Of a DNA stretch of 64,000 bases, positions 7,907 through 56,696 are shown one piece after another. Origin of the DNA: Candidatus Brachythrix odensensis. Its GTDB lineage: Bacteria > Chloroflexota > Anaerolineae > J036 > Brachytrichaceae. The notes under the pieces are model-generated. The model worked only from the letters and a program-made list of their open reading frames with translations, searched no databases and was not told the DNA's origin. How positions within the stretch are numbered: the first letter of the stretch is position 1; each line of letters begins with the position of its first letter. Both the position numbers and the translations under genes were made by a program. The stretch covers positions 58,186-122,185 of the forward strand of contig JADKDT010000005.1 of NCBI GenBank assembly GCA_016714465.1, read 5' to 3'.

Positions 7907-7916
7907 AATCGCCTTT

Positions 7917-7957
7917 TCCGAATCCATCCCCCGGCTCCGCCGGGGGATGGATTCGGA
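7917..7957. repeat. Hairpin repeat, CCCCGG-core family (copy 1)
   Basis: tccgaatccatcccccgg / ccgggggatggattcgga: 18-bp arms around a 5-nt loop, lying between two minus-strand genes. Confidence 0.7.
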
Positions 7958-7964
7958 GAACTTG

Positions 7965-20367: not shown

Positions 20368-20441
20368 CGCGCCTAGCAGGATTTGAACCCACAACCCCTT
20401 GATCCGAAGTCAAGTGCTCTATCCAGTTGAGCTATAGGCGC
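20368..20441 (-). tRNA. tRNA-Arg (anticodon UCG)
   Basis: Hand-folded cloverleaf: acceptor GCGCCTA/TAGGCGC, D arm GCTC-AACTGGATA-GAGC, anticodon arm CTTGA-CTTCGGA-TCAAG, T arm GTGGG-TTCAAAT-CCTGC, discriminator G. 74 nt, CCA not encoded. Confidence 0.9.
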
Positions 20442-20499
20442 CGAGATTTTATGCTACCACATTTGACAGGAGATCAAACAGGCCGTATGATCATCCATT

Positions 20500-20604
20500 G
20501 TGTTGCTGGGTCCTGCGCGGCGGAAGCCTTCGAAACCCGCCAGGATCGGAAGATAGCAACGGTAAGGAGTCCCTTTCGGGTGTCGTGGGAGTGCCTGGCA
20601 ACAC
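20500..20604 (+). ncRNA. ffs: Signal recognition particle RNA, small (4.5S) type
   Basis: Single long hairpin closed by GUGUUGCUGGG / CCUGGCAACAC. The apex reads AGG-AUC-GGAA-GAU-AGCA (20542-20558), which is the conserved domain IV symmetric loop plus GGAA tetraloop. It is followed by ACGGUAAGGAG, similar to E. coli GCCAAGGCAG. Confidence 0.7.
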
Positions 20605-20681: not shown

Positions 20682-22136
20682 ATGGAAGAAAGTATTCGAG
20701 TAGCAGCACCCGCCTTGCCGTCCGGCGCCGGACGGCGTCGTGCGTGGCTGGCCGTGCCAATCATCCTCGGGCTTCTGAGCCTCCTAACGGCGGGCTATTT
20801 CAGCACGCTCACCCCGGCTCAGATTGTGGACGGCGAGCGCATCCTGCCGATCAGCACGCACCAAACCACGGTTGGCGCCGCGCTTCGAGAGGCGGGGATC
20901 ACCCTCCTTGCCGAAGATGTTGTGTCGCCGGGCCTCGAATCCGTCCTCAACCGAAACGACGCGATCGTCATCAAACGCGCCCTCACCACCCGGGTTGTCC
21001 TTGAGAACCAAGAGCCCCGGCTCGTGCGGACCCAAAGCCGCTCAGCGCGTCAGGTGCTGGCCAAACTCGGGGTGAACGTCGGCAATTTCGATCTCGTCAC
21101 CGTGGACGGCAGTTTTAGCGAAGCGCTGCCCGATCAAGCGGCAGGAAAATCCGCCGGTGTGATCTCTGAAATTCGATATCGCCCGGCAATGACCCTGAAG
21201 ATCAGCGACCAGGGCCAGAACGTCACCCTGCAGACGACCGGCGCCACGGTCGGCGAGGCCCTGATGCAGGCCGGGCGCACTCCATATCTGGCCGATCGCA
21301 TCACACCGCCCGTTGGCGCACCGATCGAAAACGGGATGGCCGTGACGGTTGTCCGCGCCAAACCCGTCAATGTCGTCGTCGACGGCCGGCGGCTGCGGAC
21401 AAGAACCCACAGCGCGACCGTCGGCGATGTGTTGACCGAGCTCAATGTCGTGCTCTACGACCAGGACTTTGCCCGTCCGGCGCTTGGGACCCCGATCGCC
21501 GACGACATGGAAATCCGAGTCGTGCGGGTCAAACGCGAGCTTGTCATCGTCCAGGACATCATCCCCTTTGACACGCGTTACCAACCGGATGGCAACCTTG
21601 AACTCGACAATACGATCGTGGGCCAGGAAGGCGCGCCTGGGGTCAGGGAGAAACGCACCCTTCTCACCCTCGAGGATGGCGCCGAGGTCAAGCGCGAGCT
21701 GGTGGCCGACTTCATCGCCCGCGAAGTGCAGCCGCGCATCTACAAGTACGGCACGAAGATCGTCATTCGCAATGTGGACACGCCGAATGGGCCAGTCCAG
21801 TACTGGCGCACGATCCGAATGTGGGCGACGTCCTACTCGGCCAGCACCGCCGGCACATCCCGGACGGCCCGAAACTACGGCATCGTACGGTGCGGCATTC
21901 CGATGCGCCGTGGCATCGTCGCGGTCGACCCTGCCGTCATTCCCTTGCGCACCTACGTCTATGTCGAAGGATATGGCGAGGGCTACGCCTGCGACACGGG
22001 CGGCGCCATCCAGAACAAACGGATCGACCTCGGGTATGACGACGACAATCTCAAGTTGTGGCGCGGCTGGGTGACGGTCTACCAACTTGCGCCGCCACCG
22101 GCCAAGATTCAGTACATCCTCGATCCGGAGCAATAG
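20682..22136 (+). CDS. Membrane-anchored DUF348 (x4) / G5 / 3D-domain cell-wall protein (YabE / RpfB-scaffold-like)
   Basis: ORF 20643..22136; ATG 20682 is preferred. TM segment AWLAVPIILGLLSLLTAGYF. Repeated TVGxxLxxxG modules. G5-like segment. C-terminal 3D domain (GIVAVDPAVIPLRTYVYVEGYG...CDTGGAI). Confidence 0.8.
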   Translation: MEESIRVAAPALPSGAGRRRAWLAVPIILGLLSLLTAGYFSTLTPAQIVDGERILPISTHQTTVGAALREAGITLLAEDVVSPGLESVLNRNDAIVIKRALTTRVVLENQEPRLVRTQSRSARQVLAKLGVNVGNFDLVTVDGSFSEALPDQAAGKSAGVISEIRYRPAMTLKISDQGQNVTLQTTGATVGEALMQAGRTPYLADRITPPVGAPIENGMAVTVVRAKPVNVVVDGRRLRTRTHSATVGDVLTELNVVLYDQDFARPALGTPIADDMEIRVVRVKRELVIVQDIIPFDTRYQPDGNLELDNTIVGQEGAPGVREKRTLLTLEDGAEVKRELVADFIAREVQPRIYKYGTKIVIRNVDTPNGPVQYWRTIRMWATSYSASTAGTSRTARNYGIVRCGIPMRRGIVAVDPAVIPLRTYVYVEGYGEGYACDTGGAIQNKRIDLGYDDDNLKLWRGWVTVYQLAPPPAKIQYILDPEQ

Positions 22137-22140
22137 CGGC

Positions 22141-22993
22141 ATGGAAATCGTCAGTCGCAATCAACTTCAGAACCTCGGGATCGAGCCCAAGAAAAGCCTG
22201 GGACAAAACTTCCTGGTCGATGCGGCTGCCGCGGAACGGATTGTCGACGCCGTTGGCATCGAAACGAATGATCTCGTCTTCGAGATCGGGCCAGGCACCG
22301 GGGCGCTAACGCGCGCGCTGGTGAAGCAAGCCGGCCAGGTGATCGCGATTGAACTGGATCCACGTCTGGTCGAAACCCTGCGCGAGATCTTCAAGCGCGC
22401 GCCCAACCTGACGGTGGTTCACACGGACGCGCTCGAAGCAGATTACGCGGCGCTGGCCGCCGCGCACGCGCCCACGAACACGGGGATCCGCTTTGTGGGC
22501 AACCTGCCGCACCATTACCTCGGCGATTGTGCGAAAGATCCTGGAAAGCGGGCTGGCGTGGGAAAGCGTCGTTGTCACTGTGCAACTCGAGGTCGCCCAG
22601 CGCATGGTGGCTGGGCCCGGCGACATGGGCCTGCTGTCGGTGGCCACCCAGCTCTACAGCAAGGCCGAAATGCTGATGCGCCTGGCCGCCGGCGCTTTCT
22701 ATCCCCAGCCTGGGATCGACTCGGCGGTGGTCCGGCTCACCCCGCACCCCGCGCCGCTATTTGACCAACCCGAGATCCTGTTCAAGCTGGCCCGGGCCGG
22801 TTTCAGCCAACGCCGCAAACAGCTTATCAACACGCTGTCCACCGGGGTCGGGCTGAGCAAAATCGACGCCGCCGAATTGCTGCTGAAGGCAAAAGTAGAG
22901 CCCAGCCGACGCCCGGAGACACTGACCGTTGCCGAGTGGATCAGGCTGTCGCAGGTCTATTTGGCCTTCACGCCGTCAGAAGGCGCGGGGTGA
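22141..22993 (+). CDS. rsmA: 16S rRNA (adenine1518/1519-N6)-dimethyltransferase RsmA/KsgA, frame broken near 22510-22514
   Basis: MEIVSRNQLQNLGIEPKKSLGQNFL, EIGPGTGALT and FVGNLP lie in frame 1. ITSAIVRKILES and the rest to the C-terminus lie in frame 2 (ORF 22493..22993). Confidence 0.8.
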
Positions 22994-30360: not shown

Positions 30361-31450
30361 TCACCCGCGCCCGGGGCCACGATCGCCGGTCAACAATCTC
30401 GCCATCTCCACCGCCAGCGCGCGCATAAGCAGGGGCGGAACCGCATTGCCGACCTGATGGGCCTTCTGGATGTAGGTGCCGCAGAAGGTAAAGCTGTCGG
30501 GGAAAGATTGCAGGCGGGCGGCCTCGCGAATGGTGATCACCCGCGGGTCGCGCGGGTGGCCATACCGCCCGCTCCCGGGATGAAACACCCAGCGGGTGAT
30601 CGTGGGCGCGGGCGCCTCCCACGTGAGGCGCCCATACGCGCCGCTGTAGCCCGAGCGCGGGCGCAGCGCGTCGGGCAGATCGCGCAAGCCCTGGCCCGGG
30701 CCGATGGAGGCCAGGCGGGCGGCCTGGGTGGGCCGGAGTGGCCGGGCGACGTGATCGCGCAGCAGGGGCGACCCAGCTCGCATGCCGATCTGATACGGGG
30801 TGGCCGGCGGATCGGCGTACTCAGTCTCGTCCGAGGCCTTCGCCGTGCGCGAGCGGCGGCAGATCGCCGATCGCATCGCGGACCGTGACGGGCATCTGCG
30901 CGGGAAGAGCGGGAAACGGCCGGGTGCTGTCGCGCCGGCCAATGAAGAAAGCCCGCCGGCGCTGTTGGGGCACGCCGTGTTCGGAGGCGCGCAGCACGCG
31001 GGCCTCGACGGCATACCCGGCCGCGCCCAGGCGCTCGGCGATCTCGCTGCTAAAGGCGCCCCCAAAGCCATTCTTCATTTCGGCCACGTTCTCCATGATG
31101 ATGGCTCGCGGGCGGAGAAACTCGACAAAGGCGAGGAAGCGCTGAACGAGCAGGTTGCGCGGATCTTCATGGGTGCGCTGGGCGCGCGGCACGTTTTTGC
31201 TGAAGCCCTGGCAGGGCGGCCCGCCGATCAGCAGGTCGAGCTCGCCCCGGCGCAGGCCGACGGAGCGGGCGAAGGCGCGCGGTTCGAGGGACGCGAGGTC
31301 GGCCAGACGCCCGCGCTCGGCCCCGAAATTGCGCTGGTAGGTCTGGATGGCGATCGGGTCAGTGTCGAGCCCGGCGACGACCTCGAAGCCCGCCTGGCGC
31401 GCCCCGAGCGACATGCCGCCGCAACCGCAGAAAAGATCGACCACTCGCAC
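30361..31450 (-). CDS. DNA (cytosine-5)-methyltransferase (Dcm-type), orphan, frame broken near 30833-30840
   Basis: Motif I DLFCGCGG, motif IV GGPPCQGFS and ENV lie in ORF 30821..31450. The target-recognition region and motifs IX/X (REAARLQSFPDSF, GNAVPPLL) lie in ORF 30361..31071. Confidence 0.8.
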
Positions 31451-31493
31451 GGAGCGAGTTTATCACCGACAGCAGAGGTCCTGGTGGTTTTCA

Positions 31494-31561
31494 CCACAAA
31501 GGCACCAAAGACACATCGCCGTTGTTCTTGTTTCCTTGTGAGTGTCTTTGTGCCTTTGTGG
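31494..31561. repeat. CACAAAGGCAC-family hairpin
   Basis: ccacaaaggcaccaaagacac ... gtgtctttgtgcctttgtgg. A half copy (ttgcctttgtggtgaaaaacc) occurs at 58591-58611. Confidence 0.65.
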
Positions 31562-31627
31562 CGAACGGCTTTCTATGCCATGCGTGGGCGATCACTGCTG
31601 GGTCGTCAGGTATCATCGTCCGTCGCC

Positions 31628-32698
31628 ATGACGACACGCATTCCCGTCGCGGTTCTGGGCGCCACCGGCGCCGTGGGACAGCGCTTTGTTCAACTGCTTC
31701 AGAACCATCCCCTGTTCGAGATCGTGGCCCTGACCGCCTCTGACCGGAGCGAGGGCAAGCGCTATGCCGAGGCCGCGCGCTGGGTGACCGACGGCGACAT
31801 ACCCGCCGAGCTGCGCGACCGGATGCTGCTGGCCACAGACGCCGGGGCGGTTCAGCGGGCCGCGCCCGAAACCCGTTTCGTCTTCAGCGCGCTACCCAAC
31901 GAGAGCGCCCAGGAGGCCGAACCCGCCTTTGCCCGGGCCGGGATGACGGTCTTCTCAAACGCGTCGGTCTATCGGATGGCCTCTGACGTGCCGCTGGTCA
32001 TCCCCGAGGTCAACGCCGGGCACCTGGCCCTGCTCCGTCATCAGCGCGCGGCGCGAGGCTGGACGGGCGGGATTGTGTGCAACACCAACTGCACCGTTTC
32101 TGGGCCGGCGATGTCCTTGCGCCCGCTGCACGACCGGTTTGGGGTGAAGCGGGTGTTCTGCGTGTCGATGCAGGCGATCAGCGGCGCGGGCTATCCGGGC
32201 GTGCCCTCGCTCGACATCACCGACAACGTCCTGCCCTTCATCAAGGGCGAGGAAGAGAAGGTCGGGGCCGAGACCCGCAAGCTGCTGGGCGCGCTGGGTG
32301 AGGATCGGATTCAGGATGCCGATATCGCGGTGAGCGCGCACTGCAACCGGGTGCAGGTCATCGACGGGCACATGGTGACGATGAGCGTGGAGCTCGAGAC
32401 CGCTGCGACGCCCGAGCAGGCCGCCCAGGCGATGCGGGATTACGCCTGCGCCGACGTGGCCGGCTTGCCCAGCGCGCCGGAGCACGCCATCATCGTCCAC
32501 GACGCGCTCGACCGGCCGCAGCCACGGCGCGACCGGATGAACGGTGGCGGAATGAGTACGAGCGTTGGGCGAATGCGGCGAGAGGAGCTGTTCGGCGAGC
32601 GCGGCATCAAATACATGACCCTGGCCCACAATACAATTCGCGGGGCGGCGGGCGGCAGCCTGCTGAACGCGGAGACCCTGCTGCGGATGCTGTGGTGA
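31628..32698 (+). CDS. asd: Aspartate-semialdehyde dehydrogenase (archaeal/fungal-type branch)
   Basis: ATG 31628 within ORF 30800..32698. VAVLGATGAVGQRF Rossmann motif, active-site CNTNCTV, SGAGYPG. Confidence 0.8.
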   Translation: MTTRIPVAVLGATGAVGQRFVQLLQNHPLFEIVALTASDRSEGKRYAEAARWVTDGDIPAELRDRMLLATDAGAVQRAAPETRFVFSALPNESAQEAEPAFARAGMTVFSNASVYRMASDVPLVIPEVNAGHLALLRHQRAARGWTGGIVCNTNCTVSGPAMSLRPLHDRFGVKRVFCVSMQAISGAGYPGVPSLDITDNVLPFIKGEEEKVGAETRKLLGALGEDRIQDADIAVSAHCNRVQVIDGHMVTMSVELETAATPEQAAQAMRDYACADVAGLPSAPEHAIIVHDALDRPQPRRDRMNGGGMSTSVGRMRREELFGERGIKYMTLAHNTIRGAAGGSLLNAETLLRMLW

Positions 32699-37256: not shown

Positions 37257-37308
37257 CGGATTCGATATCCCCGCCCCGGCGTACGCCGGGGCGGGGATAT
37301 CGAATCCG
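37257..37308. repeat. Hairpin repeat, CCCCGG-core family (copy 3)
   Basis: cggattcgatatccccgccccggcg-ta-cgccggggcggggatatcgaatccg. Confidence 0.7.
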
Positions 37309-38457: not shown

Positions 38458-38503
38458 GTCATGAGCGTAATGCCGATCAGGGGTTTCGTCCAGCGCAAGT
38501 TTT

Positions 38504-38550
38504 CCCGAAAATGATGCTCCCCGGCAGAGCCGGGGAGCATCATTTTCGGG
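38504..38550. repeat. Hairpin repeat, CCCCGG-core family (copy 4)
   Basis: cccgaaaatgatgctccccggc-aga-gccggggagcatcattttcggg. Confidence 0.7.
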
Positions 38551-38604
38551 ATTATTCGCCGCTTTCGCGGGTGGCTGGAGAAACGATTTGTCCAGCTTGC
38601 GTCA

Positions 38605-40692: not shown

Positions 40693-40896
40693 GGGGTGTG
40701 TCTCCTTTGCGGCCGCGCCTCCCACGCCCTCGCCGTCTCCTGGCGCCACCCCGGGGCGGCGCCAGGAGGAGCCCGAAGACACGCGGGAACCACGGCCATG
40801 GCTCCCGCATAACGCTATGCCGCCCGGGCGCGAAGATCCATGGGCCAACTCGTACGAAAAGTGGCATTTCCGGAACTGGGTATCATTCGCGCCCGT

Positions 40897-42480
40897 ATGA
40901 CATCTCAATCCCCCACCCCCGCTCAGAAGGACTGGCTGTGGCGCCCCGCGCTGATCGTCTTCATCAGCAACGTCTGCATCATGGTGATCGAACTGGTGGC
41001 CGGGCGCATGGTCGCGCCGATCATCGGCGTGTCGCTCTACACGTGGACGAGCATCATCGGGGTGATCCTGGCCGGGATCAGCCTGGGCAATTTCATCGGC
41101 GGCAAGATCGCCGACCGGATGGCCTCGCGCCGGACGCTCGGGATCATCTTCATCCTGGCCGGCCTCGGTGCGCTGAGCGTGCTGTTCTCGGTTGAAGCGC
41201 TCAGCGCGTCCGGGCTGCCCTCGCTGAGCTGGATGCCGCTGATCGGACGGATGGTGCTGTTCATCACCCTCATCTACTTCCTGCCCAGCACGATGCTTGG
41301 CCTGATCTCGCCGGTGGTCATCAAGCTCACCTTGCTGGATCTGAAGGCGACCGGCAATGTGATCGGCCGGATCTACGCGGCCTCGGCCCTGGGCAGCATC
41401 GTGGGAACCTTTGCCACGGGCTACTTCCTGATCTCGGCGTTTGGCACCCGGTTGATCAGCCTGGGCGTGGGCGCGCTGCTCATCTTCATGGGCGTCCTGC
41501 TCGGGCAGTGGTTTCGAAACCGGGCGGTGGCCGCCGTCGCCGCGGTTGTCGCCGCCCTCGCCGTAGGGGCGGCCTTCACCCAGAATCCGCGTCTGCGCGA
41601 TTCCATGGATTCAGGCTGCACGATCGAATCCAATTACTTCTGCATCAAGGTTCGCGATGAAACCCAGAACGACAAGGCCTACAAGGTTCTTTCGCTGGAC
41701 GCGCTGGTGCACAGCTACAACTCGTTGGAGGATCCGCGCGAGCTGCGCTACGCCTACGAGCAGGTGGGGGCCGAGGTGGCCGAGTTCCTGCAGAAACGCG
41801 ACAACCGGATCGACATGCTCCTGATCGGCGGGGGCGGCTACACCTTGCCGCGCTATCTGGAGTCGGTCTATCCAAACGTCAACATCGACGTGTCCGAGAT
41901 CGACCCGGCCGTGACCGCCACCGCCTACGACAGCCTGGGGCTGGCGCGCAACACCCGGACGGTGTCCTATAACGAGGATGCCCGCCAGTTTCTCGTTACC
42001 CTCGATCCCGCCCGGAAATACAACTACATCCACGGCGACGCCTTTAACGACTTCTCGGTGCCCTATCACCTCACCACCCGCGAGTTCAACGAGCTGGTCA
42101 AGCGCCATCTCACGCCCAACGGGATTTACCTGAGCAACGTCATCGACGGGCGGGATCTGCCCTTTGCGCGAGCGCTGCTGCGGACGCTGAAGGCGACCTT
42201 CACCCACGTCTACTTCATCCCGTCGAACAAGGCCTACCGCGACATTCGGGCGAACACCATGCTGGTGCTGGCGACCAACAGCCCGCTCGACACGCCGGCC
42301 TTCGCCACCCTCAACGGCCACGACAACCAGAGCCAGTTCAGCGCCTGGATCATCGACGACGCCGAACTCGACGCCTGGCTGGGGACAGGCCCGCAGTTCC
42401 TGCTCACCGATGATTATGTGCCGACCGACAACCTGCTGACGGGCGTGTTTGAGGTCAAGCTCGCGGTGCCTACTCCCTGA
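40897..42480 (+). CDS. Fused polytopic membrane domain + spermidine-synthase-like SAM-dependent aminopropyltransferase domain
   Basis: ORF 40840..42480 trimmed to ATG 40897. About 7 hydrophobic segments, then LLIGGGGYTLPRYL, VSEIDPAV and HGDAFND. Confidence 0.75.
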   Translation: MTSQSPTPAQKDWLWRPALIVFISNVCIMVIELVAGRMVAPIIGVSLYTWTSIIGVILAGISLGNFIGGKIADRMASRRTLGIIFILAGLGALSVLFSVEALSASGLPSLSWMPLIGRMVLFITLIYFLPSTMLGLISPVVIKLTLLDLKATGNVIGRIYAASALGSIVGTFATGYFLISAFGTRLISLGVGALLIFMGVLLGQWFRNRAVAAVAAVVAALAVGAAFTQNPRLRDSMDSGCTIESNYFCIKVRDETQNDKAYKVLSLDALVHSYNSLEDPRELRYAYEQVGAEVAEFLQKRDNRIDMLLIGGGGYTLPRYLESVYPNVNIDVSEIDPAVTATAYDSLGLARNTRTVSYNEDARQFLVTLDPARKYNYIHGDAFNDFSVPYHLTTREFNELVKRHLTPNGIYLSNVIDGRDLPFARALLRTLKATFTHVYFIPSNKAYRDIRANTMLVLATNSPLDTPAFATLNGHDNQSQFSAWIIDDAELDAWLGTGPQFLLTDDYVPTDNLLTGVFEVKLAVPTP

Positions 42481-42481
42481 C

Positions 42482-42536
42482 TTCTTGGGAGACAACATGC
42501 CCCGGCTTCGCCGGGGCATGTTGTTTCTCCCAAGAA
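42482..42536. repeat. Hairpin repeat, CCCCGG-core family (copy 5)
   Basis: ttcttgggagacaacatgccccgg-cttcg-ccggggcatgttgtttctcccaagaa (one bulge). Confidence 0.7.
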
Positions 42537-42555
42537 CCGAACCAGTGCTGCGCTT

Positions 42556-42918
42556 CTTCTTGTGCTATTGATTAACCGTATTCGTAGTAGGGGCGTGGAT
42601 GATGTGGATAACCGTCGGCTCGCCCAGCGCTGGCGGCAAGCGCCGGGCGAGCGCCAGATGTGCTGGTGATACGCGCTTTGGCCTGGGACGGGCTGTATAT
42701 CCCATGTGGGGGATTATTTATCGCAACTTGTGAGATGGATATCCCAAACGCCATGGGTGGGGTGGGATATCGCGAGGTCCGCGCCCGAGCCACACGCTGT
42801 GCGCAAAACATTCCGGCCAAACGTGGATAATCTCCGCAGCGGCCAGATGCAGGGTCAAGTCGAGACCGCGTCCGACGTCATCCACATGCGATTTCCACAG
42901 GCTCACCCAGAATCCACA
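42556..42918. promoter_or_regulatory. DnaA-box cluster with adjacent GC cluster, DnaA-trio-like triplets and AT-rich tract (candidate oriC / DnaA-binding locus)
   Basis: TGTGGATAA (9/9) at 42603-42611 abuts CGTGGATGA (7/9) at 42594-42602. CGTGGATAA (8/9) at 42822-42830. In the opposite orientation: TCATCCACA (8/9) at 42878-42886, ATTTCCACA (7/9) at 42891-42899, GAATCCACA (7/9) at 42910-42918. GGG at 42591-42593, then read 3'->5': GAT GAT GCT TAT GCC AAT TAG TTA. Local AT-rich tracts at 42556-42590 and 42692-42745. Confidence 0.5.
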
Positions 42919-42933
42919 GAGGCTATTCTGGTT

Positions 42934-42980
42934 TTCGGGAGCGATGTTCCCCGGCTTTGCCGGGGAACATCGCTCCCGAA
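42934..42980. repeat. Hairpin repeat, CCCCGG-core family (copy 6)
   Basis: ttcgggagcgatgttccccgg-ctttg-ccggggaacatcgctcccgaa. Confidence 0.7.
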
Positions 42981-43010
42981 GACAGATCCATCAAGAAGGA
43001 TGGCGCGCTG

Positions 43011-44465
43011 ATGGACACTGTCGCATCGCTGTGCGATCGTTATGGTGTCGATATGGCCCATGCGCGGCACGTCGCCGCGATGACGCGCCAGTTGCTTGAG
43101 GCCGCGCGGGCCCGGCTTCCTGATCCGGACCGCCTGGTCGCGCTGGGCGAGATCGCCGCGCTTCTACACAACGTCGGGATGAACCTGGACCCGGCCCGCC
43201 ATCACACCGTCGGGCGCGACATCGTCGCAGCGAGCGAGATCGAAGGGGTGGACGCCACCGAGCGGGCGATGCTTGCCTGCGCGGTGCGCTTCCATCGCAA
43301 GAAGGTCGACCCGGATGCCGAGCCATTGATGCAGGCGTTGACTGCCGCGCAGCGGCAGTCAACGCTACTGATCACGGCCGCGTTGCGGGTGGCGGACGGG
43401 CTGGACTACCACGGGCGCCAGGACACCCGGATCGTAGCCCTGACCCTCGACCCGGAAGGCGCGCTGTTGCGCGTGCGCGGCGCGTATTGCCACGAAAACA
43501 GGGCCCGGGCGCTCTCCAAGGCCGGGGTGTGGAACACCGTCCTGCCCCCGCTGCGCATCGAGGCCAGGATGGACCGGCCGGGCGCGGATGGGGATATAGC
43601 GCTGGGCGCGGCCGCCCGGCGGATTCTGCGCTACCTGGTCGACCGGCGCGGGCTGGACGCGCTTGTGAGGCGGGCAACCGGCCCGGGCGGCGAAACGGCT
43701 GATGTTTCAATCCGGGCGCTGCGGACCGGTTTTCGCCGGCTGCGGATCGGCGCGCGGGTTTTCGGACGTTATGCGCCTGCGCGCGTGATGCGCGGGCTCG
43801 AGGCGCGCCTGCGTGAGATCGGGGCGGCCGGCGGCCCGGCCCGCGAGACCGAGATGATGGTCGGGCTGCTCGACGCGTATCTGGCGGATGCCGATCCCGC
43901 CGCGCGCGCGGCGCTCGGGCCGATGCGGGCGGTGTGGGACATCGCCCGACGCGAGGCGCGCCGGGTGTATTTTGAGATGCTGCGCCGGTCTGGCGCGGAC
44001 GACTGGCTGAGCGGCCTGGCCGGGCTCGATCTCGCTGACGATGACAGCGCCGCCCTGCCGGCGGGGCAACCCTGGCTGATGCGGCACCTGGCCCCAGCTG
44101 TGCTGCAGCGCTATTTGACTCGGGTTCGGGCGTTTGACACCCTGGCCCGCGACGCGTCGATTGCGGACTGGCATCGCTATCGCATGGCCGTCCGGCAGCT
44201 GCGCACGGTGGCTGATCTGCTCCGCGACGCGCTGCCGGACGGGCAGATCAAGCCGATTCTGGCCCGTTGCCGCGAAACACAAGACGCGCTGGGCGAGCTG
44301 CGCGACGCGCACATCACGGCCCAGGCGGCGCTTCAGTTTGTGTCGGGGCTGCCCGCGCCAGATGCGGAGGGGTCGGATGCCGGGCGGGCGGGTTTGGCCT
44401 TCGCTGCCTGGCTGCAGGAGAAGGCGGCCGCGCTACAGCCGGAGAGGGTGGAGGCGTGGGGGTAG
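43011..44465 (+). CDS. HD-domain (Ppx/GppA C-terminal type) + CHAD-domain protein (polyphosphate-associated family)
   Basis: ORF 42957..44465 trimmed to ATG 43011. HNVG..HH..GRDIV HD-like N-terminal part and a long helical Arg/Ala-rich CHAD-like C-terminal part. Confidence 0.65.
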   Translation: MDTVASLCDRYGVDMAHARHVAAMTRQLLEAARARLPDPDRLVALGEIAALLHNVGMNLDPARHHTVGRDIVAASEIEGVDATERAMLACAVRFHRKKVDPDAEPLMQALTAAQRQSTLLITAALRVADGLDYHGRQDTRIVALTLDPEGALLRVRGAYCHENRARALSKAGVWNTVLPPLRIEARMDRPGADGDIALGAAARRILRYLVDRRGLDALVRRATGPGGETADVSIRALRTGFRRLRIGARVFGRYAPARVMRGLEARLREIGAAGGPARETEMMVGLLDAYLADADPAARAALGPMRAVWDIARREARRVYFEMLRRSGADDWLSGLAGLDLADDDSAALPAGQPWLMRHLAPAVLQRYLTRVRAFDTLARDASIADWHRYRMAVRQLRTVADLLRDALPDGQIKPILARCRETQDALGELRDAHITAQAALQFVSGLPAPDAEGSDAGRAGLAFAAWLQEKAAALQPERVEAWG

Positions 44466-44469
44466 GACC

Positions 44470-44880
44470 TCACTCCGAGCCGCTGATGCGCTCGGGCCGG
44501 ATGCGGTAGGTCACCCGAATCTCGCTGGGGCTGCGCCATTTGTAAGATGGGTTGCCGGTGTATTTCATCGAGAGGGCATCGATGATGGCATCCCCATCGG
44601 CCTCGGTGATCTCGATGACGCGCCCGCGGATGGTGAGATACCGGCCGGAGTTGGCGGGGTCCGATATTTCGAGCGCGATGCGCCCGTCGCGGCGCAGGTT
44701 CTTGTCCTTCAACCGGCCGCGGGCGCTGTTGATGACGAGCAGATCGCCTTCGCGCATGATCCAGACGGGTGTCACCTGGGGGCTGCCATCGGGCATCAGG
44801 GTGGCGACGTGGGCGATGGCGGGCTTGACCAGCAGGTCGGCGTATTCGGCCGGGATGGGGGCGGGGGGAAGAGAAGACAT
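44470..44880 (-). CDS. Pyridoxamine 5'-phosphate oxidase-family split-barrel flavin/F420-binding protein
   Basis: ORF 44470..44880, 136 aa. IAHVATLMPDGSPQVTPVW and RRDGRIALEI pattern. Confidence 0.7.
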   Translation of the reverse strand: MSSLPPAPIPAEYADLLVKPAIAHVATLMPDGSPQVTPVWIMREGDLLVINSARGRLKDKNLRRDGRIALEISDPANSGRYLTIRGRVIEITEADGDAIIDALSMKYTGNPSYKWRSPSEIRVTYRIRPERISGSE

Positions 44881-44930
44881 GTTCGCAGTGTAGCGGAGCC
44901 CCTTGAGGGGGCTTCTGATTGTCGCAGGGA

Positions 44931-45033
44931 ATCTATCCGCAGATTACGCAGATTCTCGCCGATCTTGTTTTGTAAGAGGCGCTCCGGACAACCAAGAATA
45001 ATCGGCGAGTATCTGCGTAATCTGCGGATAGAT
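44931..45033. repeat. 33-bp inverted repeat pair separated by 37 bp (MITE-like or bidirectional hairpin)
   Basis: atctatccgcagattacgcagattctcgccgat (44931-44963) versus the reverse complement of 45001-45033, with 2 mismatches (31/33). Confidence 0.8.
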
Positions 45034-45035
45034 GA

Positions 45036-45797
45036 TTAGCCCCGGACTTCGCCGCGCATGAACTGGGCGATGCGCCCGGCGGCGGGGTGGCCGAGTTTGT
45101 CGGTCAGGGCGATGACGGCGGCCTGGTCATAGGCGACCCGGCGGGGTTCAACCCGGTGAGTGCTCGCATCTGCATGCAAGATGGCGTATTTGGCCCGCTG
45201 GTCCTCAACCGGCGAATTGCTGACACTGCCAAGGTTAAAGACGCGCACGCCATCGACGGTCAGGTCCATCGGGATGTGGGTGTGTCCGGCAAAGACCAGG
45301 TCGGCGGCGCAGCCGGCCAAGGCGGCCCGCAGTTCGGCCTCGCTGAGCTTGGGTGAGAGGCCCTTGCCGTCGTCGGTGCCCGGCGCGGCGTGGACGCCCA
45401 GCACGCGCGTGCCGTCGGGCAGGGTCAGGCGCAGGTCGAGGGGCAGCTCGCGCATCCAACCCAGGAAACCGGCCGCGGTGACGGCGCCCATGGTCCAGGC
45501 CATCGAGCGGGCGAAATCCAGCACCCCTTCGATCTTGTCGGGATGGGCCCGGGCTTCAGCGAGCCAACCCTCGACAAGGCCCTGGGTCGTCGCATAACGA
45601 TCGGTGTTTCCGCGCAGGAAATGGGCGTTGGGCAGCGCCCGGATCTGCTCAAGCACGCCGACCGGGTCAGGGCCGATCGCGGCGAAGTCGCCGAGCAGCC
45701 AGTAGCCGTCCACCCCGCCCGCGTGCTCGATATCGGCGAGCACCGCGTCGAGGGCGATTGAATTGCCGTGAATGTCGGACAGGATGGCGAGTTTCAT
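45036..45797 (-). CDS. Calcineurin-like metallophosphoesterase (YfcE/MJ0936-like)
   Basis: ORF 45036..45824; ATG 45797 is preferred (MKLAILSDIHGN). GDFAA, GNTD and GHTH motifs. Confidence 0.8.
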   Translation of the reverse strand: MKLAILSDIHGNSIALDAVLADIEHAGGVDGYWLLGDFAAIGPDPVGVLEQIRALPNAHFLRGNTDRYATTQGLVEGWLAEARAHPDKIEGVLDFARSMAWTMGAVTAAGFLGWMRELPLDLRLTLPDGTRVLGVHAAPGTDDGKGLSPKLSEAELRAALAGCAADLVFAGHTHIPMDLTVDGVRVFNLGSVSNSPVEDQRAKYAILHADASTHRVEPRRVAYDQAAVIALTDKLGHPAAGRIAQFMRGEVRG

Positions 45798-46947: not shown

Positions 46948-46992
46948 ACTACTTAGTCTACTTCCCCGCGGAAACAAGACATGAGGTTTTCT

Positions 46993-47044
46993 GGAGGCGA
47001 AATCCCCCGCCCCGGCGTCCGCCGGGGCGGGGGATTTCGCCTCC
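46993..47044. repeat. Hairpin repeat, CCCCGG-core family (copy 7)
   Basis: ggaggcgaaatcccccgccccggcg-tc-cgccggggcgggggatttcgcctcc. Confidence 0.7.
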
Positions 47045-47138
47045 ACAGAGCCCAGAACACGGCGGATTGGCTACAATCGCCCAGGCGAGTAACACGTTGG
47101 CCGCTTCATGCCAACAAGTACGTCTGCGACAAACCATC

Positions 47139-51559: not shown

Positions 51560-52312
51560 ATGAAATTTCTACTCACCTCTGCTGGCATCAAGAACGACAG
51601 CCTTCGCTCGGCCCTGATCGATCTGCTGGGAAAACCGATTGCGGAGGCCAGCGCCCTCTGCATTCCCACCGCGATCTACCCCTTCCCTGGCGGGCCCTCG
51701 ATGGCCTACCGGTTCATCAATGGCGAAACCGTGAACCACTTGTGCGGATTGGGATGGAAGTCGTTGGGCGTGCTGGAACTCACGGCCCTGCCCAGCATCA
51801 AGGAAGAGCACTGGATCGCGGCTGTCCAGGAGGTTGACGCCCTGCTGGTGATGGGCGGCGATGTCGTGTATCTCACCCGCTGGATGCGCGAGTCCGGCCT
51901 GGCCGCCCTCCTGCCGTCGCTGCGTGAGACCGTCTATGTGGGGGTGAGCGCCGGGAGCATGGTGACGGCCCCGGTTTTCGGCGAAACCTACGACGACCCC
52001 GACAGGCCCTTCGTCATCGAAAAAGGTCTGGGGCTGGTTGACTTTGCGCTGGTGCCGCACGTCGATCACGCGGACCACCCGGAAAGCAGCATGGCCAAGG
52101 TGGAAAGAATGGCCGCCGAGCTGCCTGTGCCGACCTACGCGATTGACGACGAGACCGCCATCAAGGTGGTCGACGGAAACGTCGAGGTCGTCTCAAAAGG
52201 CCATTGGAAACGGTTGGCCAGGCCGGCGTCACGCCATGAATTATGTTGTGCCTTCTCTACAAACGGAGTCTGCGCATGGGGGGGGGGGCACTGGCCGCGG
52301 CCCGATGAATAG
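51560..52312 (+). CDS. Peptidase E / S51-family dipeptidase with an atypical ~30-aa C-terminal tail
   Basis: ORF 51560..52312. MKFLLTSAG, GGDVVYL and GVSAGSMV nucleophile motif. The tail ARPASRHELCCAFSTNGVCAWGGGHWPRPDE runs through a run of 11 G. Confidence 0.7.
   Translation: MKFLLTSAGIKNDSLRSALIDLLGKPIAEASALCIPTAIYPFPGGPSMAYRFINGETVNHLCGLGWKSLGVLELTALPSIKEEHWIAAVQEVDALLVMGGDVVYLTRWMRESGLAALLPSLRETVYVGVSAGSMVTAPVFGETYDDPDRPFVIEKGLGLVDFALVPHVDHADHPESSMAKVERMAAELPVPTYAIDDETAIKVVDGNVEVVSKGHWKRLARPASRHELCCAFSTNGVCAWGGGHWPRPDE
52278..52288. repeat. Homopolymer G(11)
   Basis: A run of 11 G at 52278-52288, inside the 3' tail of the PepE-like ORF. Confidence 0.95.
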
Positions 52313-52621
52313 CCGAGGCGCAAGGCGACGAGCCGGTTGACGGACACCGTCAACGACAGCCCTCTTGAGGTGGTCTTGATTGACTCGGTCAGCAATGACG
52401 TGATGTTGCGGTTTGCAGGCGGCAAAGTGATGCGCAACTTTTCAAATTCAGGCTTGCATGACATAGCGGACACAAGCGGTTGAAGCGCGGACAGAGACGT
52501 AGCGTTGCCACAAAGCGGCGCAGCTCGGCAAGGCGCTGACTTTCTTCTTCTCGATTGAGCTGCGGCAATTCGTGATAATGGCAGGAACAACTGTGACCAG
52601 AAGCTACCCTGAAAAAGATTC

Positions 52622-52668
52622 GGCGAGATCACCATCCCCGCGCGCAGCGCGGGGATGGTGATCTCGCC
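52622..52668. repeat. Hairpin repeat, CCCCG-core family (copy 8)
   Basis: ggcgagatcaccatccccgcgc-gca-gcgcggggatggtgatctcgcc. Confidence 0.7.
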
Positions 52669-52699
52669 CATGATTCTCAGGATGACTTCCAGAGGCAAT

Positions 52700-53386
52700 A
52701 TGGCAAAACACAACCGAGTGACGCTGGAAATCGGCCCGAAAGGCAAGAAGGTGGTGGCGGTGGCGCCGGATTGGCCCGGGCTCGAGCGCGGGGGAAAGAC
52801 CGCGGAAGATGCCATCGAGAAGCTGCGTTCCTATGTTCCGCGCTATGCCCAGGTCGCAAAGCTGGCCGAAATGGGCGCGGCGTTTACCGCCGTGAAGAAG
52901 TTCGACGTCGTCGAGCGCTATCCAGGAACAGGCTCAACGGACTTCTGGGGCATCTCGTTCGCGTTTTCGAGCATCGACACGCAAAGCATGTCGGGTGACG
53001 AACTGGAACGCGAGCTGGCGCTCATGCAGGCGTGCTGGGCATTTTTCGACACGGTGCGCGGGCGGGTGTCGGCTGAAATGAAAAAGGGTCCGCGCGGGGG
53101 AGGGCGCGAGCGGGACCATATCGTCCGGCATACGCTTTCTGTTGAGCAGGACTGGGCGGGAGGGGTTGGCGTGCAGGTGCCCGAGGGTGAGATGCTGACG
53201 GGCGAGGGGCTGAAAGCGTATCGTGATGCGTATTGTCACGGAATACGGGACTACCACGCGCAAGGCAAGTGGGCCGGGAACAGGGCGAAATGGCCGCTTC
53301 GGTATCTCATTCGGCATACCGCTTTTCACACCCTGGACCACGCCTGGGAGATGGAAGACAAGGATATGACGCCCAAAGACGCGTGA
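52700..53386 (+). CDS. DinB/YfiT-like four-helix-bundle protein with an N-terminal extra domain
   Basis: ORF 52655..53386 trimmed to ATG 52700. The C-terminal YLIRHTAFHTLDHAWEMED pattern is typical of the DinB_2 superfamily. Confidence 0.6.
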   Translation: MAKHNRVTLEIGPKGKKVVAVAPDWPGLERGGKTAEDAIEKLRSYVPRYAQVAKLAEMGAAFTAVKKFDVVERYPGTGSTDFWGISFAFSSIDTQSMSGDELERELALMQACWAFFDTVRGRVSAEMKKGPRGGGRERDHIVRHTLSVEQDWAGGVGVQVPEGEMLTGEGLKAYRDAYCHGIRDYHAQGKWAGNRAKWPLRYLIRHTAFHTLDHAWEMEDKDMTPKDA

Positions 53387-53464
53387 AAATAGACGGAAGG
53401 GGGATCCAAGAGCACCCAAACTGAAGCGCTGAGACAGTTCTTCGCCGCTATCAATCGCAATGAC

Positions 53465-53815
53465 ATGCAGGCCATCACGAAGGACTTTGATCCGCAAATT
53501 GTGAGGGTTGACCCCGAGGGCTTCCCAACAGCCGGCACGTATCGTGGCATCGCGGCGGTGCAGGAGCACGTTGCGAAAGGACGCGGGACCTGGGCCGAGG
53601 GAAGTTGCGAGCCCGAGAAGGTCCTGGTCAATGGAGATAAGGTTGTCGTGTATCTCCACGCCCGAGTCCGCCTGAAGGATTCGACTGACTGGGTTGGCGG
53701 ACGCTTTGCGGATGGTTTCGCGTTTCGCGATGGCAGGATCACCCAATACCTCTCCTTTGGACAACGGTCGGATGCCTGGGGGGGCTGGAAATGGGCCGGA
53801 GTGGACTCTGAATGA
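53465..53815 (+). CDS. SnoaL/NTF2-like (ketosteroid-isomerase-fold) protein; annotated start probably too short
   Basis: ORF 53465..53815. In-frame protein-like sequence TEALRQFFAAINRND precedes the ATG but contains no ATG/GTG/TTG back to the stop at 53390-53392. Confidence 0.6.
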   Translation: MQAITKDFDPQIVRVDPEGFPTAGTYRGIAAVQEHVAKGRGTWAEGSCEPEKVLVNGDKVVVYLHARVRLKDSTDWVGGRFADGFAFRDGRITQYLSFGQRSDAWGGWKWAGVDSE

Positions 53816-54234
53816 ACACGCACGATCACATCAACGCGTATATTGCCGCTCAACCCGAATCAAAACGCAGTGACATGCAAGCGTTGCACGGCATGATTCT
53901 GAAGTTGATGCCGGGATGCAAATTGTGGTTCCTGGATGGGAAAGACGAGAAAGGGCGAACGGTGTCCAACCCCAACATCGGATATGGATCCCGGACCCAA
54001 CAATATGCCGATGGAAAGACCCGGGAGTTCTATCAAATCGGTATCAGCGCGAACACGACTGGCGTCTCTGTCTATATCCTCGGAATAGAGGACAGGAAAT
54101 ACCTGGCCGCAACCTATGAGAAAGAACTCGGCAAGGCGAGTGTTACGGGCTATTGCATCAAGTTCAAGACCCTGAAAGACATCAACATCGACGCGCTGAG
54201 AGCGGCAATGCAATACGGGATTGAGCAGACATAG
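53812..54234 (+). CDS. DUF1801 (YdhG-like) domain protein
   Basis: ORF 53812..54234. ATGA overlap with the upstream gene. INAYIAAQPE...Y.IKFK pattern. Confidence 0.65.
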   Translation: MNTHDHINAYIAAQPESKRSDMQALHGMILKLMPGCKLWFLDGKDEKGRTVSNPNIGYGSRTQQYADGKTREFYQIGISANTTGVSVYILGIEDRKYLAATYEKELGKASVTGYCIKFKTLKDINIDALRAAMQYGIEQT

Positions 54235-54238
54235 AAGC

Positions 54239-54706
54239 ATGGCTACACTCCATTTGATGGTTGGTCTTCCGTGCTCAGGAAAGACAACGCTTGCCCAAAA
54301 GCTTGAACGTGAAAGAGCAGCGCTTCGATTGACACCGGATGAATGGCAAGTGCGTCTCTTCGGTCAAGATGCAGATGCGCCCGAACACGACGCAAGGCAC
54401 AGCTTGATCGAGGCCATGCTTTGGAACATCGCAAGCCGGGCGCTTGAGTTGGGGACGAATGTGATTCTTGATTATGGCTTCTGGGCGCGGGAGGAACGCG
54501 AGTATTTCCGGCTGCAGGCGAAGCAGCTTGGGGCGAGTAGTGAAGTGCATTTTCTCGATGTGCCGGAAGATGAACTGATGCGGCGACTTGCGACACGGAA
54601 TTCGCAACCTTCGCAGGCAAGCTTCCACATTCCCGAAGACATGATGAAGCCATGGATCGCGTTCTTCCAGAAACCAACACCGGATGAGCTCGAGCGAAGA
54701 GAATAG
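54239..54706 (+). CDS. P-loop kinase (AAA_33 / zeta-toxin-like fold)
   Basis: ATG 54239. Walker A GLPCSGKTT and Walker B-like VILDYGFW. Confidence 0.7.
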   Translation: MATLHLMVGLPCSGKTTLAQKLERERAALRLTPDEWQVRLFGQDADAPEHDARHSLIEAMLWNIASRALELGTNVILDYGFWAREEREYFRLQAKQLGASSEVHFLDVPEDELMRRLATRNSQPSQASFHIPEDMMKPWIAFFQKPTPDELERRE

Positions 54707-54713
54707 ATGAGTA

Positions 54714-55142
54714 ATGAGACAAACAGATCGAAGTTGTAGCGAAACCCACGTGACCTTGTCAATAAACCCTGCACCGGGATCAAGCTTGGACGAGATTACC
54801 CACATCTTGTCAATTGCGCCGACATCTCAGACGATAGAGGGCCAGGTCCCGATCAATCGCCGAAATTCAAAGCGAGAAGCAAGACACACAGCGTGGTTTC
54901 TTGAGTCGGAGTCACTCGTTGACACATCTGACGTCAATGACCATATCGATTGGTTGATCAACAGGCTTGACGGCAAGGAACATCTGTTACGAGAGCTAAT
55001 CGCTCGCGGCTGTGCGGCAAGAATCTGGTGCTATTGGCTCTCGGCGCTTGGACATGGCGGCCCAATCTTGACAAGCAGACAGAGGGGTCGGCTTTCAATG
55101 CTGGGCCTCGACATTTGCTTTGATGTGTACGGCACTATCTGA
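54714..55142 (+). CDS. DUF4279-like small protein (tentative)
   Basis: ORF 54714..55142, 8 nt after the kinase gene. Family assignment is by recollection of the pattern only. Confidence 0.5.
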   Translation: MRQTDRSCSETHVTLSINPAPGSSLDEITHILSIAPTSQTIEGQVPINRRNSKREARHTAWFLESESLVDTSDVNDHIDWLINRLDGKEHLLRELIARGCAARIWCYWLSALGHGGPILTSRQRGRLSMLGLDICFDVYGTI

Positions 55143-55332
55143 TGGTCCTACATCTGCGAGTGGCTCACAACCCTAGTGCATGCGCAGGGCGCAATACGAA
55201 AATCGTGCTTCGGCCATGTCAGGCCAACCCGCGTTCGCAGCCGACTTGCAATGGCCAGCGCAAATTTGGGTCTTCCGGGCTGCTGGCGCTGGGCGGGCCA
55301 CGCCGGAGCGGCTGCTCGAGGTTGAGCCGGCG

Positions 55333-55360
55333 CTGACGACCAAATGGACTCCGCTACAAT
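55333..55360 (+). promoter_or_regulatory. Putative promoter of the mazEF-like module, leaderless geometry
   Basis: CTGACG (55333-55338), 16-nt spacer, TACAAT (55355-55360), then 9 nt to ATG 55370. Confidence 0.4.
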
Positions 55361-55369
55361 CTCACTACT

Positions 55370-55600
55370 ATGACAACCACGCATGTGACGGTTGAGGCTG
55401 TCATCGACCCGTCGGGTGTCGTGCGCATTCTGCAGCCGGTCGACATTCAGACTTCACGCAGGGCGCTTGTGACAATTCTCGACGAACCGGTCATTGAGAC
55501 GGCAGAGCCGGCTCTTTTGAGCGAAAACGCGCTTGCCGAAGATTGGTTGCGCCCCGAGGAGGACGCCGCATGGTCATACCTTCGCTCGGCGACATCGTAG
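55370..55600 (+). CDS. Type II antitoxin (pairs with the MazF/PemK toxin)
   Basis: ORF 55370..55600, 76 aa. The C-terminal LLSENALAEDWLRPEEDAAWSYL motif is typical of small antitoxins. Overlaps the toxin gene by 31 nt. Confidence 0.65.
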   Translation: MTTTHVTVEAVIDPSGVVRILQPVDIQTSRRALVTILDEPVIETAEPALLSENALAEDWLRPEEDAAWSYLRSATS

Positions 55601-55902
55601 TTCTGCCATTCCCGTTCTCTGATCTATCAGACAGTAAGCTGAGACCGGCTGTTGTTCTTGCGGAAGCCAGCAAGGGTGATTGGATTTTGTGCCAAATCAC
55701 CAGCAACCCCTATGGTGATGCGCAAGCGGTAACCATCGAGCAAACCGATTTCGAAACAGGAATGCTAAAACTGAAGAGCTTCGCTCGCCCACACAAGCTG
55801 TTCACAGCGAACCAGCAGCTTTTCATTTCGGTCGCAGGCCGACTAAAGCGTAGCAAGCTGAACGAGATTCGCTCAGCAATCATCGCTGTATTGTCCACGT
55901 AG
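55570..55902 (+). CDS. MazF/PemK-family endoribonuclease toxin
   Basis: ATG 55570 within ORF 55543..55902. GDIVVLPFPFSDLSDSKLRPAVVL and ..CQITSN.. motifs. Confidence 0.8.
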   Translation: MVIPSLGDIVVLPFPFSDLSDSKLRPAVVLAEASKGDWILCQITSNPYGDAQAVTIEQTDFETGMLKLKSFARPHKLFTANQQLFISVAGRLKRSKLNEIRSAIIAVLST

Positions 55903-56003
55903 GCTTGGCTTCCGTTGGGCAGTCCTGGACGCCACCTCGATCTTGATTGGGGGTATGTCGTGCGCGAGCGGCATTCTGTGTTCGCGCGGCTAAAATCCCC
56001 GCC

Positions 56004-56696
56004 GTGCTCACCGTCCTCGGCCCAACCACGCCCTTTCCGCCCCTGGCCCGGGCGATGCGCCGCCCCAACGGGCTGCTGGCGCTGGGCGGGCAGGCCACCC
56101 CGGCGCGCCTGCTCGAGGCCTACCGGCGAGGGATCTTCCCCTGGTCGGGGCCGGGCGAGCCGCTGCTGTGGTGGTCGCCCGATCCGCGGATGGTGCTGTT
56201 CACCGACGAATTTCATGCCAGCCGCTCGCTGTTGCGTGCGGTCAAGGCCGGCAAGTTTGAGATCCGAAGGGACACGGCCTTCCGCCAGGTGATGGAGGCC
56301 TGCGCGGAACCGCGCCCGGGCCAGGACGGAACCTGGATCACCCCCGAGATCCTCGATGGCTATTGCGGGTTGCACGCCCAAGGCTACGCCCACTCGGTCG
56401 AGAGCTGGCAGGACGGCGCGCTGGTCGGCGGGCTGTATGGGGTCCGCATCGGGCGAATGTTCTTTGGCGAGTCGATGTTCGCCCGGGTGACCGACGCGTC
56501 GAAGGTGGCGCTCGTCCACCTGGTTGAGGCCCTGCAGGCGGACGGCGTGCCGATGATCGACTGCCAACAGGAGACCGAGCACCTGGCCTCGTTTGGGGCC
56601 AGGCCGATCCCGCGGGCGGAGTTTGCGCGGCGGCTGGCGGAGTTGTGTGGAAGCGATGGGCCCGGCCGAGCCGGGCCCATCGTTTCCACAGTCTAA
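56004..56696 (+). CDS. aat: Leucyl/phenylalanyl-tRNA--protein transferase
   Basis: ORF 55947..56696; GTG 56004 is preferred. LLEAYRRGIFPW, WWSPDPRMVL, GESMF and DCQ motifs. Confidence 0.85.
   Translation: MLTVLGPTTPFPPLARAMRRPNGLLALGGQATPARLLEAYRRGIFPWSGPGEPLLWWSPDPRMVLFTDEFHASRSLLRAVKAGKFEIRRDTAFRQVMEACAEPRPGQDGTWITPEILDGYCGLHAQGYAHSVESWQDGALVGGLYGVRIGRMFFGESMFARVTDASKVALVHLVEALQADGVPMIDCQQETEHLASFGARPIPRAEFARRLAELCGSDGPGRAGPIVSTV

Follow-up and report, generated by a model that had tools for sequence, protein, structure and literature searches.

A conserved DnaA-box cluster as a candidate chromosomal replication origin in an uncultured Thermoflexales-like Chloroflexota bacterium

Results

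Layout of the locus

The stretch of DNA analysed here, called the window, is 64 kb long. It has a gene-free gap at 42481-43010, and both genes that flank the gap are on the + strand. A first-pass annotation had read this gap as a candidate replication origin, with a DnaA-titration or regulatory locus as the alternative. The features are listed below, with the strand where a feature has one. Mismatches of DnaA boxes are counted against TGTGGATAA/TTATCCACA, and the six sequences are those of the window and of five relatives; the part that is conserved among them is called the element.

40840-42480, + strand: fused membrane/spermidine-synthase-like gene, upstream of the gap and ending at 42480
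42482-42536: long GC-rich REP-like hairpin, left bracket of the element, in this species only, outside the conserved element
42553-42592: candidate DNA unwinding element; in a nearest-neighbour stability scan no 40-mer of the gap is less stable, and it ranks in the top 0.14% of the window
42567-42590, + strand: DnaA-trio-like triplets, read 3' to 5' as GAT GAT GCT TAT GCC AAT TAG TTA
42591-42593: GGG, a GC cluster that separates the trios from the proximal box and is kept as GGG or GGA in all six sequences
42594-42602, + strand: proximal degenerate DnaA box CGTGGATGA, 2 mismatches (2-3 in 6/6 sequences)
42603-42611, + strand: distal perfect DnaA box TGTGGATAA, 0 mismatches, abutting the proximal box and perfect in 5/6 sequences
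42618-42652: GC-rich hairpin (inverted repeat), stem sequence varying among relatives with pairing kept
42653-42660 and 42842-42849, + strand: the two copies of a conserved direct repeat, GCCAGATG
42691-42727: near-invariant 37-bp block GGCTGTATATCCCATGTGGGGGATTATTTATCGCAAC, where conservation within the element is highest (6/6 sequences)
42697-42704: first ATATCCCA, inside the 37-bp block, with an imperfect inverted partner at 42707-42717
42737-42770: second ATATCCCA (42739-42746) and an inverted copy (42763-42770), found by motif count
42790-42806: conserved palindromic CCACACGCTGTGCGCAA, found by alignment conservation
42822-42830, + strand: DnaA box CGTGGATAA, 1 mismatch (1-2 in 6/6 sequences)
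42878-42886, - strand: DnaA box TCATCCACA, 1 mismatch, in the opposite orientation
42891-42899, - strand: DnaA box ATTTCCACA, 2 mismatches (1-2 in 6/6 sequences)
42910-42918, - strand: DnaA box GAATCCACA, 2 mismatches (2 in 6/6 sequences)
42931-42983: second hairpin of the same REP-like family, right bracket of the element, in this species only
From the ATG at 43011, + strand: Ppx-GppA_III (Ppx_III) and CHAD gene, downstream of the gap, its ATG preceded by the ribosome-binding site AAGAAGGA

Mechanical open reading frames are present in the gap (for example 42706-43011, 101 aa). The variable columns of the element alignment among the relatives are spread over the three phases as 31/32/28, which shows no codon periodicity, whereas the differences in the adjacent CHAD gene fall as 16/10/59 on codon positions 1, 2 and 3. 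A coding gene in the gap was ruled out on this ground, and the earlier statement that the gap has no credible reading frame stands despite the mechanical ones.

Pfam scans of about 50 ORFs in the 64-kb window found no dnaA, no dnaN and none of the other usual indicator genes (gidA, parAB etc.), in agreement with the first-pass annotation, which had reported no dnaA or dnaN nearby. An indicator gene, which is usual at oriC and not obligatory, is thus absent from the window. The window does carry chromosomal markers, namely SRP RNA, tRNA-Arg, asd, ksgA, acpS and aat. The tRNA-Arg(TCG) gene (- strand) lies back to back with the small SRP RNA (+ strand) at 20368-20603. The match to rRNA adenine dimethylase (ksgA/RrnaAD) at 22087-22993 falls on two ORFs, 22087-22764 and 22493-22993, which overlap and differ in frame, and this split reflects a frameshift, a pseudogene or a sequencing error. 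ORF 30361-31071 (- strand) matches the C-5 cytosine DNA methylase profile over no more than its final 60 positions and is probably a gene fragment. It is overlapped by the asd ORF (30800-32698), the domains of which begin only at residue 283, so that the true asd start is likely to be near 31.6 kb. At 52000-56000 the GC content is lower (0.54-0.59) and the ORFs have no Pfam hits. Metagenome contigs of the window species stop near this region, and the contig of another strain, L084, has an rve-family integrase gene (12141-12318) after a Peptidase_S51 gene. These observations suggest a strain-variable insertion region.

Enrichment of DnaA boxes

All six DnaA-box-like 9-mers of the first-pass annotation were recovered at the same positions, between 42594 and 42918, and the perfect box at 42603-42611 is the only one in the window, as had been claimed. 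Boxes with at most one mismatch number five in the 64-kb window, and three of these are in the gap. Within 331 bp there are six boxes with at most two mismatches where 0.47 would be expected (Poisson P = 9.5e-6; corrected for all windows of this length, about 0.002), and this is the densest cluster of the window. The gap thus holds what is expected of an oriC, a DnaA-box cluster well above background in non-coding DNA. No 350-bp window with six boxes including at least two good ones was found in a control of 1.5 Mb from other Chloroflexota loci. Four DnaA-box-like 9-mers (at most two mismatches) that lie loosely together at 44651-45100 were considered as a competing cluster and rejected, being inside coding DNA and at chance level after correction.

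Conservation among relatives

A scan with the upstream protein placed the window in the Chloroflexota, and the closest relatives in the genome collection are Thermoflexales/Anaerolineae metagenome-assembled genomes. The identity of the upstream protein is 87% in L001, 86% in L002, 80% in L003 and 71% in L004. The same strain occurs in many activated-sludge assemblies (for example ERZ27275390, ERZ27275353 and JGI 3300005656), on contigs of about 13 kb, and contigs of the species in the collection do not exceed about 14 kb. When metagenomes were scanned with an invariant 20-mer, three further copies from this species turned up, together with a new relative, L089, with a DNA identity of 82% across the locus; a 35-kb JGI contig was among the finds. 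A further 20-mer match, L087, was a chance hit in an AT-rich coding region and was discarded.

The first-pass annotation had named the absence of this spacer from close relatives as a finding that would speak against an origin. The core of the element, about 42545-42920 (about 375 bp), is retained in five related metagenome genomes (L001, L002, L003, L004 and L089). Its nucleotide identity is 82-83% in L001, L002 and L089, 71% in L003 and patchy in L004, and the sequence immediately beyond the core is unrelated among the relatives. The six boxes keep their positions with 0-3 mismatches in every sequence, and invariant columns make up 74% of box positions versus 34% of non-box positions. Enrichment together with this box-by-box conservation confirms that the cluster is real and non-random. 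Because substitutions are even over the three phases and the box columns are conserved, the element is, to judge from the alignment, non-coding DNA under selection that peaks on the DnaA boxes.

The left-hand neighbour of the element differs among the relatives. An intact gene for a cNMP-binding/DUF1003 membrane protein is present in L003 (8012-8872, - strand) and L004 (11572-12522, - strand). It lies between the spermidine-synthase-like gene and the element and starts at the left edge of the latter. Since this gene is on the minus strand in both, comparison of the sequences indicates that the ancestral setting of the element is a divergent intergenic region. The window species, like L001 and L002, has lost the gene. 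L001 and L002 keep a remnant of its ribosome-binding site and ATG, and the window has a mutated ATG.

The bracketing hairpins at 42482-42536 and 42931-42983 are absent at the locus in L001 and L002. The left one is likely to be the terminator of the upstream gene. Hairpins of the same family also occur at 7914-7960, 37257-37308, 38503-38551, 46985-47052, 52622-52668 and 56646-56690; they are about 45-65 nt long, nearly perfect and GC-rich, with a CCCCGGC-loop-GCCGGGG core, mostly intergenic and species-specific in position. They look like REP-type repeats or terminators.

The two species-specific hairpins around the element, and its location away from dnaA, might point to a second or relic origin. 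Either the chromosome would have two origins, of which this is one, or the element would have served a replicon that integrated long ago and would now be unused or only partly used. Dual-oriC predictions for other bacteria are among the contents of a recent preprint (bioRxiv 10.1101/2025.08.05.668638). We consider this explanation quite improbable. The boxes and the unwinding module are under purifying selection across relatives in which the identity of the neighbouring protein falls as low as 71%, the hairpins are not shared by these relatives, and the element is set among ordinary chromosomal genes whose synteny is conserved. A plasmid or phage origin was also rejected, as no similarity to any record was found in plasmid or phage collections.

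The unwinding module and the B. subtilis rule

The left end of the element reads 5'-TAG TAG GGG CGTGGATGA TGTGGATAA-3' on the + strand, or over a longer stretch 5'-...CCG TAT TCG TAG TAG GGG CGTGGATGA TGTGGATAA-3'. The first-pass annotation read both GGG at 42591-42593 and the string of eight triplets correctly. As a trio array the string holds only in part, since just the first two triplets (TAG TAG, 42585-42590) are canonical. The middle A is present in trio 1 in 6/6 sequences, in trio 2 in 5/6, in trio 3 in 1/6 (L089) and in trio 4 in 6/6.

The adjoining 40-mer, 42553-42592, has a GC content of about 40% versus 65% in the genome. It lies directly beside the box pair and abuts the trios, so that a low-stability element is present where an oriC should have one. 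The AT-rich string that had been reported here is real, and its coordinates need a 3-nt shift from 42556-42590 to 42553-42587. The claim that it is the most AT-rich stretch of the region holds for the 40-mer in terms of stability and not for 30-nt windows, among which 42713-42742 is slightly more AT-rich. As an unwinding tract it has the low stability required, but part of it has another origin. The minus strand at 42553-42592 reads AAGGAGA..ATG in L001, L002 and L004, and the intact cNMP-binding/DUF1003 gene of L003 and L004 starts there. On this comparison, the left part of the tract is a remnant leader and ribosome-binding site of the lost divergent gene.

In B. subtilis, the basal unwinding system (BUS) of oriC incC, at DnaA-box#6/#7, has the trio strand 5'-TAGTAGAAGTAATAGTAG GGCC TGTGGATT TGTGGATAA-3', and the scaffold oHM558 is 5'-TAGTAG...GGCC-box-box (Pelliciari et al., PMC8287927 supplement). 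The counterpart in the window is 5'-TCGTAGTAG GGG CGTGGATGA TGTGGATAA-3'. The two share the strand, the box orientation and the order of the elements. Both have tandem boxes with a consensus distal and a degenerate proximal member, a GC cluster of 3-4 bp followed by 5'-TAG TAG on the TGTGGATAA strand, a 12-nt spacer, the least stable DNA beyond the trios and further boxes at a distance on the other side. They differ in that incC has six trios and an AT-rich 27-mer, whereas the window element has two canonical trios, a much higher GC content and a short AT-rich tract that is only about 60% AT. Unlike the B. subtilis oriC, the window element is not located between dnaA and dnaN, and it has additional features (three copies of ATATCCCA, two of GCCAGATG and a variable hairpin).

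The published BUS rule (Richardson 2016/2019, Pelliciari 2021) asks for a box with at most two mismatches and an optional second box with at most four, a trio strand that reads 5'-trios-GC-TGTGGATAA-type boxes-3', a spacer of at most 16 nt from the better box to the first trio, and at least three consecutive NAN triplets with the consensus 3'-GAT-5'. The most frequent spacers are 10-13 nt, and the authors allow for deviant trios (Pelliciari et al. 2021). In the window, the boxes have 0 (TGTGGATAA) and 2 (CGTGGATGA) mismatches and are oriented exactly as in oHM558, and the spacer is 12 nt, made up of the 9-nt box and GGG. The triplets are GAT GAT GCT, and because only two consecutive NAN triplets are present the window falls short of the published rule. 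L089, with GAT GAT GAT TAT, satisfies it; L001, L002 and L003 have two such triplets each and L004 has one. The earlier comparison with the B. subtilis architecture therefore holds for order, strand, orientation and spacer, but not for the number of trios. A second module at the right-hand boxes (CTA TTC after GAATCCACA GAGG) was also considered and was rejected, as it is not conserved in the relatives.

The rarity of this signature was assessed on both strands of 1.52 Mb of other Chloroflexota DNA (L005-L080 and L087). This control contains 170 boxes with at most one mismatch, 29 of which have a tandem partner, and in none of these 29 is the tandem accompanied by a GC-only spacer and at least two trios.

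DoriC/BUS predictions exist for cultured Chloroflexi of the same phylum (Anaerolinea, Caldilinea, Roseiflexus, Chloroflexus and Dehalococcoides). Some predicted origins of the phylum are far from coordinate 1, for example at 1.05 Mb in Caldilinea and at 1.78 Mb in Thermomicrobium. Their predicted BUS have weaker boxes than the window pair (2-4 mismatches versus 0 and 2) and no sequence similarity to the window element.

Additional conserved motifs and structured RNA

The 8-mer ATATCCCA has three copies in the 64-kb window, all within 42697-42770, and the first two are invariant in the relatives. These repeats and the 37-bp block are more conserved than the DnaA boxes themselves. CCACACGCTGTG, at 42790, is likewise conserved among the relatives. 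The hairpin at 42618-42652 folds with z of -2.2 to -5.1 in four of the six sequences (the window, L001, L002 and L089) and more weakly in the other two, L003 and L004. Probable identities for the ATATCCCA repeats, the 37-bp block and the variable hairpin are weak DnaA sites, sites of a second origin-binding factor or promoters of the two flanking genes.

A hairpin that keeps its pairing while its sequence changes, next to a 37-bp block and ATATCCCA repeats unrelated to the box consensus, could also mean that the locus is not a DnaA element at all. It would then encode a structured non-coding RNA, or it would be bound by some other protein whose target site merely looks like a DnaA box. In Rfam searches the gap had no match at the gathering score, and the sub-threshold hits on the flanking hairpins were of the chance kind; the only Rfam matches in the window, the SRP RNA and tRNA-Arg, are outside the gap. 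A known RNA family was thereby excluded. The covariation term of RNAalifold was unfavourable on both strands (+3.8 and +5.5 kcal/mol), and the predicted helices are mostly invariant inverted boxes that pair with each other. We therefore rejected a novel structured RNA for the element as a whole, with one local hairpin (42618-42652) that does covary. A promoter scan found no promoter-like site. The repeated motif matches TTATCCACA six times with 0-2 mismatches, and conservation peaks there. On this evidence, an element unrelated to DnaA is very improbable.

Replication asymmetry

The raw GC skew is negative at 1-24 kb, near zero at 24-43 kb and positive beyond. The GC, RY and MK disparity curves turn within the window in the sense expected of an origin (minus to plus), with their extremes at 24-27 kb (raw minimum 27.2 kb), 15-18 kb from the element. 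The cumulative GC skew, which had been proposed as a check on the whole contig or genome, shows an origin-type switch in the 64-kb window, but its minimum is at about 27 kb and not at the element. No DnaA-box cluster was found near the raw minimum (24-27 kb) in the scan of the window. The 1749-aa ORF at 30-5279 (+ strand), which has no Pfam domain, has an unusually negative GC skew (-0.16 overall and -0.26 at third positions), which accounts for a large part of the negative values at the window's left end.

Because the raw skew largely follows gene strand, with coding strands that are C-rich at third positions, the GC skew at third codon positions was fitted with a strand term and a side term. 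With strand fitted, a real shift in the sense of an origin remained, with a side effect at the element of +0.074 (p = 2e-4). A change-point fit over the 64 kb of sequence had its optimum at 22 kb, on a plateau that extends from 16 to 43 kb. At the copies of the element in relatives, the side effect was +0.044 (p = 0.04) in L004 and none in L003. Most genes to the left of the element are on the + strand and would meet a fork that departs from here head-on, which is at odds with the usual co-orientation of genes and fork. Since the position of the shift is bounded only to 16-43 kb, the skew is compatible with an origin at the element and is not decisive.

Discussion

Our data favour the view that the core at 42545-42920 is the DnaA-dependent chromosomal oriC of this uncultured Thermoflexales-like Chloroflexota bacterium, and on the sequence evidence we regard this as probable. 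The reasons are the box cluster, its conservation, the non-coding substitution pattern, the BUS match, the rarity of the signature, the low-stability 40-mer beside the trios, the shift in skew, the divergent ancestral context and the chromosomal setting. The view is weakened by the skew extremes, which are 15-18 kb off, by the lack of a shift in L003, by the head-on genes, by the presence of only two trios and by the lack of an indicator gene. The candidate origin of the first-pass annotation therefore gains from the box cluster, the BUS scaffold and the skew switch in the window, and loses from the placement of the skew minimum and from the trio rule.

We infer DnaA binding, unwinding and origin use from the observed sites, their enrichment and conservation, the non-coding nature of the element and its architectural match to the BUS. 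DnaA would occupy the stronger boxes at 42603, 42822 and 42878, and the weaker ones at 42594, 42891 and 42910 would be filled cooperatively, so that the boxes would form two facing arrays. An oligomer of ATP-DnaA would then extend to the left from the pair at 42594-42611, over GGG and onto the + strand 5'-...TCG TAG TAG-3'. The low-stability tract at 42553-42592 would open, and the helicase would be loaded there.

The main rival to an oriC is a cluster of DnaA boxes that does not serve as an origin. Such a cluster would regulate the divergent flanking genes (cNMP-binding/DUF1003 and Ppx_III-CHAD) and/or titrate DnaA, with the real oriC elsewhere, for example next to dnaA. In B. subtilis, intergenic clusters of several DnaA boxes exist outside oriC. 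The window element resembles these clusters and datA/DARS of E. coli in that several DnaA boxes lie in intergenic DNA with ordinary genes on either side. Its place in L003 and L004 is a promoter region between divergent genes, its conserved non-box blocks could be promoters or operators, and the short trio run, a raw skew minimum 15 kb away and the lack of indicator genes nearby would all fit with this rival. Unlike the B. subtilis clusters and datA/DARS, the element also combines a box pair of the BUS type with a GC cluster, trios and a low-stability tract. We know of no description of a BUS-type module in non-origin DnaA-box clusters. From the tandem box through the GC cluster and GAT GAT to the AT-rich tract, the exact BUS orientation and spacing are present and conserved, an arrangement that neither regulation nor titration needs. 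The element is also intact in species that lack the left-hand gene, and the skew shifts across it. The box cluster proposed as a titration or regulatory locus is therefore present, but so is an unwinding-type module, and we consider it unlikely that the element acts in titration or regulation only.

The earlier remark that an origin with no dnaA or dnaN nearby would have an unusual context needs correction, as oriC is usually but not always next to dnaA (PMC10225481; likewise PMC6669920) and a location away from it is not very unusual (PMC10225481). The gidA-mioC oriC of E. coli and the hemE-linked Cori of Caulobacter are both away from dnaA. Like these, the window element has oppositely oriented box arrays, a DNA unwinding element at one end and no adjacent dnaA. 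Unlike these, it is flanked by a spermidine-synthase-like or cNMP/DUF1003 gene and a Ppx_III-CHAD gene, and no GATC, IHF or CtrA features were identified in the element. A search of the literature on origins in Thermoflexus or the Anaerolineae gave nothing useful. A more specific and rather doubtful idea is that oriC has moved from dnaA and works with a minimal two-trio BUS together with a second, lineage-specific factor, which might bind at the ATATCCCA repeats and the 37-bp block.

The element is of an ordinary kind, in a lineage without a previously mapped origin, and current concepts are unchanged by it. To our knowledge, no origin regulator is known in the phylum Chloroflexota. If the element is the origin, its extra conserved motifs would be a concrete target in the search for such regulators. 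If the oriC assignment is right, an origin would be mapped for uncultured Thermoflexales-like Chloroflexota from activated sludge. It would provide an anchor for genome orientation, for peak-to-trough growth-rate estimates from metagenome coverage and for strand-bias analyses. It would also provide a high-GC, dnaA-distal example with two canonical trios for testing the universality of the BUS.
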